In this document: in pieces, positions 3,001 through 6,000 of the stretch
How the letters are laid out: each line of letters begins with the position of its first letter
How positions within the stretch are numbered: position 1 is the stretch's first letter
From: Escherichia coli
GTDB taxonomy: Bacteria; Pseudomonadota; Gammaproteobacteria; Enterobacterales; Enterobacteriaceae
Length of the DNA stretch: 64,000 nt
Reading direction: 5' to 3' (one strand)
Assembly (NCBI RefSeq): GCF_022846255.1
Contig: NZ_AP025682.1
Made by a program: the position numbers

Positions 3001-6000
3001 CAGGCTTTTTCCCGTGCTTTCAGGCAACAGTTCAAGGTGTCACCAGTGCAGTATCGCAATGCGGATGCCTGGGATATGCAGTATGCCCAGCCCGTATTGT
3101 ACAGAACCACACCGTGCACAAAATTCAGAATGATTGAGATAGCTGAGGGCAATCATCCTTCTGTTCCAAACCTTAAAATGCCTGTGAATCTGGGAATAGA
3201 CTTTATCCATACCCAGAGCGGCGATCATTTTATTTATAACCGTAACCTTTTTGAGTCCATAATATCAATTTATGGTCCTGTTAATGAAATGTCTGACTTT
3301 ATGATTTCAGGCGAAATGATACCCTCCAGAGAAACGGATTCTGAACTAATTTATATTTTTAAAGAAATAAACAGTTTTTCCCTGCCAGAGACGCTTCTTC
3401 CTGATGGTTTATATGCCAGCCGGGAATTTACTGGGACATACAAAGAGATTTTTGATTTTCATATATATGATGCCATGGGTGCGCTGTGTATTAATAAATG
3501 TGTTATGAAAAGAGGACCTATATATACACTATTTCACAGAACAGATAATAAAAATATTATGGATATGCAATTCCTCATTCCTTGCGTAAAAATTTAACTT
3601 CGCCAGACCCGATTAAAACGACCAGGATTACTGGCTGTATACAGTACAGTATGATGAATGTTCCTGTGTCCCAGATAATCCTGAATCAGACGAGTATCCA
3701 GTCCCTGATTAGCAAGAGCATAACCACAGGCGTGACGCAACATGTGTGGATGCACCTTAATTCTCAGACCCGCACGTTGACTATATCGTGCGCAGAGTTT
3801 ATAAATCCATTGTCTGGAAATTTTTTTCCCATGGCTTGACAGAAAAAGATAATCATCCTGACTACCTTTAGCGTATCTTTTTCTGATCAGGAGCCAGCGT
3901 TGCAATAGTTCTATTGTTTCTGGCTGCAATGGATGTGAAGTTGATAATCCGTTTTTCAGCCGCCTAATAAAAACAATTTTTTCAGTCATATCAAAATCTC
4001 CCAGTCTAAGGTCTATCAATTCACTGACGCGAAGTCCATGAATGTAAGTTATTTGCAGCAATGCTTTATCACGGATTTCATTGCGTGTACCCGTTATAGC
4101 ATTAAAAAAAAGCGCCCATTCGCTGTTGGTGATGTATTTACGCATATTTCCTCCTATCAGAGTTATATGTAAATTTTACATTTTTAGATAAAAGGAAGAC
4201 TTATCAGTTTCGGAAGTGGGTGTTGTAAGCGTTACCCGAACGCCGTATTGACGTTATCTTGCTTGGTCTTCAAAGACAATAAGTAAGCCCCTATACTGAG
4301 ACGTGGTGGAAAAATCAGTTTACATCCAGGGCAATAACTTCTTCACACGATGGTCGTTCGTTGGTGTGTAGTGGATCGGTAATTCAGGACACCTCGAAAT
4401 CCTGTTAATGTTAAAACAGTGAAAATGAGGTGATGCATGATCAAAACTCGTCGGACTAAACGTACCTTTTCCCCGGAGTTCAAACTTGAAGCTATCGAGC
4501 AGGCGGTTAAATACCAGCGTGATGTCAGAGAAGTCGCGCTGGCACTCGAGCTCAACCCTGATCATTTGCGTAAATGGATACGGTTGTATAAGCAGGAACT
4601 TCAGGGTATTGAGCCCGCTGGTAATGCTATTACCCCTGAACAACGCGAAATTCAGCAGCTTAAAGCGCAGATAAAGCTCCCTGAGATGGAAAAAGAAATA
4701 CTAAAGCAAGCTGCCGTGTTGATGAGCAAAATCCCCGGTAAGCTGTCGCGCTAATCACACGGCTGAAAGTAAAGTGGCCAGTGCGGGTTCTTTGTCATTT
4801 ATTCGGTATTCACCGTAGCGTTTATTACATGCTGGTGAAGCGTCCTGTTAATGTGCAAAAAATTGAATTACGAAGTCGGGTGAGGGCTTTCCATGCTCTC
4901 AGTCGTGGCGCAGCCGGTAGCCTAGCATTCAGTCAGATGTTGCGCCAGAGTGGCGTTGATGCAGGCCGGTGGCTGGCACGACGGCTGATGCGGGAATGCG
5001 GGCTGACAGGTCGACAGCCGGTTAAACATCACTACCGGGTAAACGAAGACAAAAGTCCGCCATTGCCAAATATACTGAACCGGCAGTTTAACCCCGCCGC
5101 ACCAGACGCGGTCTGGTGCGGCGACATCAGTTTTATTCGCCTGCAGGACAAATGGTGTTATCTCGCGCTCGTTGTTGATTTATATTCACGTCGGATTATC
5201 GGTTCAGCCCTCCCATTAACCGCTGATGCTGAGTTGGTGTGCAGGGCTTTGCGTAATGCACTGGAAACACGACCGCGTGATGACCGCCTGCTGTTTGATT
5301 CAGAGCAATGTGTTCAGTATAAATGCAATAAATACAGAAAGTTACTCTGGCGTTATGGGGTAATGCAAAGTATGAGTCGCAGAGGGAATTGCCTGGATAA
5401 TTCGCTGATGGAAAGAGTCTTTCGCAGCCTTAAAAGTGAATGGCTTCCGAAAGGTGGTTATGGTGATTTTAGCCATGCGGTACGAGATATAAACCCGTGG
5501 ATTAATGGTTATTACAACGTTTATCGACCTCACACGAACAACGGTGGTTTACCGCCTTGCTTACATGAACAGGTTATCCCGGTGTCCTGATTTTGTGATC
5601 CACTACAAGTTATATGTGCTTGACTTTATGATTTTTTAGTTAAATAGAATAATTGGTGCAACTTTAAAGTCTTTTCTACTTAAAGGATACAACTTTATTG
5701 GCTCTACACAATTGCAGCGAAGTCGTCCTGAGCTATTTCCGAAAGATGAAAATTATTAGAGTCGCATTAAAAATGAGCTAATTTTGATAGTGGTTATCTT
5801 GTGATTATTTTCTAATGAGCCTGTGAACTGAAACCCTCCATGCTTAATATAAGGTGGAGGGAAAGATGATTAAAACTCCCCCAGTGGCCAGATCTTTATA
5901 AAATATGAACAGGTTGAAAAAATCAGCAACTTTGCTGTTTATTTATACTTAACCACTATGCATTAATGCTGCGTTATTTCATGATACCTAAGAAAAACCA

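Follow-up and report, generated by a model that had tools for sequence, protein, structure and literature searches.

Among the insertion sequences of the IS3 family, IS911 and IS222 carry the classical frameshift heptamer A_AAA_AAG. The ISKpn37 clade, which is the subject of the present study, shares its architecture with these two elements, including a size of approximately 1.25 kb and a slip site that falls at the corresponding point of OrfA, ...EILK... (the OrfAB protein of IS222 is 44% identical); however, it has CTA_AAG_CAG where IS911 and IS222 have the heptamer. Regarding shorter slip sites, 87 of 490 motifs in the IS1 and IS3 families are tetramers; in E. coli, A_AAG outperforms all other tetramers, with an efficiency of up to 5.6% when it is combined with the IS3 pseudoknot (PMC4066793, PMC5009743). 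The frameshift site is C_CAA_AAG in IS3 and G_CGA_AAG in IS1222 (PMC4066793, PMC5009743). The ISKpn37 clade resembles these elements in the NNA_AAG or A_AAG class of its site, the lack of an A_AAA_AAG heptamer, and a predicted RNA structure downstream (PMC5009743, PMC4066793), and differs from them in that the codon ahead of AAG is CUA and that, whereas IS3 uses a pseudoknot, the structure predicted for the clade is no more than a simple or branched hairpin. ISKpn37 itself has been reported within terF of IncHI5 plasmids (PMC6339943).

In the present study, we analyzed a stretch of 64,000 nucleotides from Escherichia coli (contig NZ_AP025682.1; hereafter, the window), in which positions 4367-5607 are occupied by an IS3-family element of 1241 bp. 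This element, all of its features described below, and the yhiN remnant beyond its right end lie on the plus strand. Judging from its sequence, the element is very probably a non-autonomous, mutationally inactivated copy of ISKpn37 that has been inherited along with the genomic island in which it resides.

Relationship to ISKpn37

As a reference for ISKpn37, we used two copies annotated by PGAP as 'IS3-like element ISKpn37 family transposase' (L007 and L008), from which the window copy differs by 42 substitutions (96.6% identity over 1241 aligned bases) and one 12-bp gap. By the ISfinder convention, an isoform shares no less than 95% of its nucleotides with the reference element. The ends of the window copy are also identical to those of the PGAP-annotated copies; its first 117 nt (4367-4483) and last 34 nt (5574-5607), which include the left and right inverted repeats, respectively, do not differ from ISKpn37. 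The left repeat (4367-4393) starts with TG, the right repeat (5581-5607) ends with CA, and the two form the top-ranked inverted-repeat pair of the region. An earlier note on this DNA had described them as matching at 23 of 27 positions with TG...CA ends, which we confirmed, and the IS3 family is characterized by repeats of approximately 20-40 bp ending in 5'-TG...CA-3'. By nucleotide identity and ends, the element is thus an ISKpn37 isoform, neither new nor specially compact. The same note had called the element compact; its size is that of the 1253-bp ISKpn37 less 12 bp and is not unusual. The differences from ISKpn37 are evenly scattered along the length of the element and do not suggest a chimera.

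Besides the inverted repeats, the window copy and ISKpn37 have the orfA/orfB layout and the CTA_AAG slip site in common. The two consecutive open reading frames expected for the family are present in the window copy, and orfB is in the -1 phase relative to orfA, as previously noted. The orfA frame (4437-4754, 105 aa) is still open and its product matches the helix-turn-helix model HTH_Tnp_1 (PF01527, E 3e-18), whereas what remains of the frame for the catalytic part, orfB (4742-5590), matches rve, the catalytic core (E 8e-20), as well as rve_3 and HTH_21. Against the NCBIfam model of the whole IS3 transposase (NF033516, cut-off 160 bits), the window OrfB reached 251.7 bits and the OrfAB of ISKpn37 reached 354 bits. 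ISKpn37 differs from the window copy in its length of 1253 bp, its 388-aa OrfAB, and its target duplications of 3-4 bp; the window copy differs from ISKpn37 by a TAA codon in the transframe segment, the replacements D290E and L82P, the absence of a target duplication, and a 12-bp deletion.

Intact relatives of the element are present in several genera. A protein search detected fusion transposases of 388 aa that are still intact in Salmonella, Enterobacter, Klebsiella, and Serratia; their genes measure 1166 nt, as would be expected of a protein made by -1 frameshifting, and a search of plasmids found 1253-bp copies named ISKpn37 by PGAP in Klebsiella, Raoultella, Citrobacter, and Enterobacter. 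Sequence-identical copies of ISKpn37 are located at four plasmid sites, where they are flanked by the duplications GGC/GGC, ATC/ATC, AGC/AGC, and GTTA/GTTA; the presence of identical copies at several sites indicates that the element is active now or was recently. ISKpn37 normally makes target duplications of 3-4 bp, which is typical of the IS3 family. The earlier note had set against its own reading a match to an element that is active and has the same ends and a working frameshift; this applies to the family, namely, ISKpn37, but not to the window copy. Among 5426 complete E. coli genomes, related sequences occur in 1718, with at least 80% of the element being covered in 329, and none of these genomes carries a copy identical to the window element. 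The 64-kb window contains this single copy only, with no further copies or fragments of the element.

The slip site and the short overlap

The earlier note had found no obvious frameshift signal in the overlap of orfA and orfB at 4742-4754, and we also detected no A_AAA_AAG heptamer there or anywhere else in the element. However, the sequence CTA_AAG is located at 4701-4706, upstream of the short overlap that had been inspected, and its slippery tetramer A_AAG (4703-4706) is intact in the window copy. All eight of the intact relatives compared (L004, L005, L007, and L009-L013) carry ATACTAAAGCAGGC without variation, down to a protein identity of 55%, and the invariant stretch within their overlap reads ATA_CTA_AAG_CAG_GC. 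In these relatives, the -1 frame runs without a stop codon from the counterpart of position 4685, which results in an overlap of approximately 70 nt holding A_AAG. The comparison with intact relatives suggested in the earlier note therefore points to a conserved CTA_AAG within a long overlap and not to a missing signal. In the window copy, the -1 frame is shut by the nonsense codon TAA at 4739-4741, and it is because of this closure that the visible overlap at 4742-4754 measures only 13 nt.

The conserved A_AAG is thus a candidate for the programmed -1 frameshift motif that IS3-family elements carry in the overlap of their reading frames. A slip at this tetramer yields the annotated 388-aa protein with a single difference, at residue 89, which arises because the join placed by PGAP sits 2 nt upstream. 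Considering its conservation throughout the clade, we infer that ISKpn37 and its relatives do shift frame at A_AAG. Two other sequences were considered and rejected: the upstream A_AAA (GAA_AAA_G, 4691-4694) is not a conserved slip site, a relative from Hafnia having GAG_AAA, and C_CCC_GGG near 4733, a poor frameshifter, is not conserved, the Salmonella copy having ATT_CCC. The A_AAA_AAG heptamer is absent from all members of the ISKpn37 clade examined, including copies that were recently active, and its absence is therefore no sign of decay.

A stimulatory hairpin was predicted at 4711-4765 using RNAalifold and single-sequence folds. It begins 4 nt past the slip site, encloses the stop codon of orfA, and was predicted in all relatives. 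The RNAalifold consensus of nine relatives comprises 17 pairs, none of which showed compensatory changes. The single-sequence fold had a free energy of -24.4 kcal/mol for ISKpn37 (z -1.9) and -16.4 kcal/mol for the window copy (z -0.9), both z-scores being modest, and the hairpin thus appears to be weakened in the latter. On the basis of these models, the hairpin probably stimulates the frameshift.

In intact ISKpn37, translation in frame 0 would give OrfA, with its helix-turn-helix and zipper, while a -1 ribosomal frameshift at A_CUA_AAG, during which tRNA-Lys would re-pair from AAG to AAA and which the downstream hairpin probably boosts, would give the 388-aa OrfAB transposase; transposition leaves target duplications of 3-4 bp. 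The window copy still has the ends, orfA, and the slip site, but a ribosome shifting at 4703-4706 would reach the TAA at 4739-4741. Beyond this codon, the encoded catalytic triad reads D-E-E and not D-D-E, and four C-terminal residues are missing. As far as can be read from the DNA, the frameshift signal of the window copy is present but runs into a stop codon.

Lesions and descent of the window copy

The stop codon in the -1 frame is due to a G>T change at 4739 (GGG>GGT), a position occupied by G or A in intact copies; although silent in orfA, the change cuts the OrfAB fusion 11 codons past the slip site. Regarding the catalytic domain, the second box of the DDE motif (5297-5311) has been altered from HSDQG to DSEQC (H288D, D290E, and G292C). 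The change D290E (GAT>GAG at 5303-5305) replaces the second catalytic Asp, while the first catalytic Asp (5123-5125) and the Glu (5411-5413) have been kept, and the disruption of the D,D(35)E triad typical of the IS3 family is a lesion of the window copy and not a property of its family. By analogy with other DDE enzymes, we infer that D290E would abolish catalysis; conservative Asp-to-Glu changes do not always lead to the complete loss of DDE activity. Near the end of orfB, 12 bp have been deleted in frame between 5567 and 5568 (AAGAAAAGTGGA, residues EKWK), which is specific to the window copy, and the heptad or zipper region of OrfA carries R81L (4677-4679) and L82P (4680-4682). A further 21 residue changes relative to ISKpn37 are scattered throughout the copy.

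Over 4757-5566, the part of orfB outside the overlap with orfA, the dN/dS ratio between the window copy and ISKpn37 was 0.94, while ratios among intact copies ranged between 0.07 and 0.15, which indicates that essentially all of the divergence from ISKpn37 accumulated without selection. With the TAA codon in the path of OrfAB, the D-E-E triad, and the loss of EKWK, no transposase would be made, and the copy would be unable to move by itself. The earlier note had suggested an old or immobilised copy; this proposal is supported by the TAA at 4739, D290E, the EKWK deletion, and the dN/dS ratio, whereas its argument from the absent heptamer is not.

Copies at the same site provide a view of when the element was inactivated. 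The identical two junctions were found in 7 of the 5426 complete E. coli genomes (strains 06-00048, FHI_NMBU_11, DS26-1, 700481, JNEC-KY202, JNEC-KY174, and CFIAFB20190167) and in one metagenome contig. Six of these seven genomes were listed for the search with the full element, and each of the six carries one copy. The orthologues in FHI_NMBU_11 and 06-00048 were aligned with the window copy and show 98.8% identity to it over the positions aligned. Both share the DSEQC lesion with the window copy, and the TAA at 4739 is also present in the copy of FHI_NMBU_11. These two copies retain the 12 bp lost by the window copy and have three private deletions of their own (10, 11, and 11 bp), and a stop codon interrupts orfA in the FHI_NMBU_11 copy and in the metagenome contig. 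The lesions common to orthologues together with the private deletions in each indicate that the element was dead before the lineages split and has decayed independently since then.

It is highly improbable that the window copy is a functional, still mobile IS that employs unconventional recoding or OrfA and OrfB as separate proteins. Both of its inverted repeats are the same as in active ISKpn37, and it has an open orfA and an intact A_AAG site; however, the -1 frame is closed by TAA after the slip site and before the catalytic domain, and D290E, the four-residue deletion, and the dN/dS ratio also argue against mobility. Moreover, the orthologous copies have acquired frameshifting deletions that differ among them, as well as a stop codon in orfA, and the genomes listed carry one copy each, not the multiple identical copies expected of an autonomous IS.

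The retention of the copy through co-option, with OrfA repressing incoming ISKpn37 or the DNA serving as a promoter or insulator for the tyrosine recombinase gene, is very unlikely. The open orfA of the window copy and the position of the element 221 bp upstream of this gene (3594-4145) are compatible with such a role. On the other hand, L82P affects the zipper of OrfA, the orthologous E. coli copy and that of the metagenome contig have a stop codon in orfA, no outward promoter-like site above the background was detected at either end, and the evolution of the element has been neutral. A related scenario arises from the perfect ISKpn37 ends and the open orfA, which make it conceivable that an incoming ISKpn37 mobilises the dead copy in trans, possibly with adjacent island DNA, or that OrfA dampens the transposition of the incomer; we consider this to be unlikely. 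An intact ISKpn37 located elsewhere in the genome, outside the 64-kb window, could likewise act on these ends in trans. An inactivated ISKpn37 copy, inherited with its island, remains the preferred reading.

The absent target duplication and the island edge

The element occupies non-coding DNA on the side of a tib-type genomic island that faces yhiM, at the very edge of the island, of which it is the outermost feature, and the tyrosine recombinase gene next to it is divergently oriented. Other genes of the island encode LuxR-type, CaiF/GrlA-type, and AraC-type regulators and a DNA invertase, and the same island in strain 06-00048 additionally carries tibA and a CBASS pair. Beyond the right end of the element, colinearity with strain EC195 resumes at 5659, 51 bp from the IS, and a remnant of yhiN (its last 21 nt, 5711-5731), approximately 103 bp from the IS, marks the island edge where colinearity with E. 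coli K-12 resumes. EC195 has a pco copper island at the same position between yhiN and yhiM. The breaks in colinearity with K-12 and EC195 and the presence of different islands suggest that the yhiN-yhiM gap is an island hotspot. No gene appears to have been interrupted by the insertion, with no open reading frame longer than 35 aa extending across the rejoined flanks, and scans around the element for Rfam families, tRNAs, and promoters or terminators returned nothing relevant.

At the left junction, the flank upstream of the recombinase gene, CACGATGGTCGTTCGTTGGTG, is followed by TGTAGTGG, and the flank beyond the right end reads AGTTATATG. The flanking triplets are GTG (4364-4366) and AGT (5608-5610), and they differ, as the earlier note had observed; the direct target duplication of 3-5 bp that IS3-family elements leave is thus absent. 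When read as a 4-bp duplication, GGTG and AGTT match at two of four positions, which is no better than expected by chance. A 10-mer, AGTTATATGT, is present at 4161-4170 and again at 5608-5617. We rejected the possibility that 4171-5607 had inserted as a single unit flanked by a 10-bp duplication because no contiguous precursor was found in E. coli and because the homology to a paralogous recombinase locus on plasmid pToe17-1 continues uninterrupted through the left 10-mer; this homology extends only up to approximately position 4220 of the window.

Simple decay leaves the absence of the duplication unexplained. At a neutral divergence of approximately 0.04, the loss of all three positions of a duplication by point mutations is improbable, and rearrangement after insertion is the more likely cause. 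In this scenario, to which we assign slightly less than an even chance, either an adjacent deletion mediated by the IS or homologous recombination between two ISKpn37 copies would have exchanged one flank and cut the island back to the yhiN-yhiM hotspot. In addition to the unlikelihood of erasing every position of a 3-bp duplication, this scenario is consistent with the perfect 3-4 bp duplications normally left by the ISKpn37 family, set against GTG/AGT in the window copy, and with the outermost position of the IS, so close to the resumption of colinearity with EC195 and to the 3' remnant of yhiN. Other decayed copies in E. coli (pVirR1, EC2, and L006) also lack duplications and are situated amid IS fragments.

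Several observations weigh against this scenario. None of the six orthologous genomes that were listed in the search with the full element holds a partner copy, and neither an empty site nor an alternative flank was found in the 5426 E. coli genomes or in the metagenome contigs. The former were searched with the joined flanks, with each junction, and, for distant matches, with the left flank, and the latter were scanned with a 20-mer of the left flank, which was always joined to the IS in the seven complete E. coli genomes and the one metagenome contig. The even spread of substitutions relative to ISKpn37 provides no sign of a chimera, and the match of GGTG and AGTT at two of four positions fits chance or decay. 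Furthermore, the flanks of two intact relatives likewise match at only two of three positions (GAC/CAC and CTG/ATG). The proposal in the earlier note of an island boundary derived by recombination gains from the edge position and the missing duplication, but it lacks an empty site or a partner copy. In either case, the element is a known one, of a known family and with a known class of frameshift site, and is present as a fixed, neutral relic.

The significance of this relic beyond correct annotation is small. The locus should be labelled as an ISKpn37 pseudogene or relic and not as an unusual variant of the IS3 family. With respect to the family in general, a missing A_AAA_AAG heptamer is no evidence of decay because A_AAG tetramers are a documented alternative, and a very short overlap of orfA and orfB may simply have been left behind when a nonsense mutation arose in the transframe segment. 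In E. coli, the relic is a handy marker of a rare variant of the tib-type island at the yhiN-yhiM hotspot, carried by 7 of the 5426 complete genomes.

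The yhiN-yhiM gap and its island

The gap between yhiN and yhiM is a multi-island hotspot, the occupant of which differs among loci (window 5608-5731 and the comparison loci L015 and L016): in EC195 it is a pco island for copper resistance, in the window a tib-type island, and in K-12 yhiN directly takes the position of the window island. Of yhiN itself, just the last 21 nt are left in the window (5711-5731). The longest ATG-started yhiM ORF (6046-7197, minus strand) encodes 383 aa versus 350 aa (1053 nt) in the E. coli annotation, and this greater length probably reflects merely an in-frame ATG further upstream.

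Positions 497-4145 hold a gene module that combines three types of regulator with two tyrosine recombinases, namely a LuxR-type gene (497-1114, minus strand), a CaiF/GrlA-type gene (1111-1584, minus strand), a tyrosine DNA invertase gene (1942-2604, minus strand), an AraC-type gene (2734-3597, plus strand), and a second tyrosine recombinase gene (3594-4145, minus strand). The module looks like a candidate phase-variation switch. In the island locus of E. coli 06-00048, this module lies next to tibA, the heptosyltransferase of tibA, and a CBASS SMODS/SAVED pair.

Two sites in the window share the identical 10-mer AGTTATATGT: one, at 4161-4170, is 16 nt upstream of the start codon of the second recombinase gene, and the other, at 5608-5617, is the first 10 nt past the right end of the IS; the probability of such a repeat by chance is roughly 1e-3 or less. 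Insertion of a unit with a 10-bp duplication was tested as its source and was without support.

Related copies and the annotated frameshift

In DS26-1, which carries the same IS insertion (NZ_CP035879.1, about 3354350-3357405), the left flank of the IS is separated from its last 300 nt by ~3.06 kb rather than ~0.92 kb. The extra DNA of about 2.1 kb apparent inside this orthologous copy is probably a nested insertion.

In the element of Enterobacter ludwigii (L005; sites 1415-1445 and about 2684-2705), the left end is altered and reads TGTAGAGGATCGGTGGATCGG, apparently through duplication of a short internal stretch; the rest is intact, and GATAAATCGG flanks the element on both sides.

The -1 join that PGAP assigns in the intact relative L004 (gene position 265), and in coding sequences of the ISKpn37 type in general, lies at ...GAAATAC|CTAAAG. 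Since this join yields Pro as residue 89, whereas a slip on the conserved A_AAG yields Leu89, the database proteins of the ISKpn37 clade probably each contain one artefactual residue.

ISKpn37-like sequences across E. coli

Among 5426 complete E. coli genomes, 1718 contain ISKpn37-like sequence, but in only 329 does a match span 80% or more of the element. The matches are mostly fragments that lie where IS remnants cluster, on virulence plasmids and in islands, as exemplified by pVirR1, in which the fragment adjoins hlyC. This predominance of fragments, together with the small number of genomes at the higher coverage, suggests that the ISKpn37-like invasion of E. coli is old and largely extinct.
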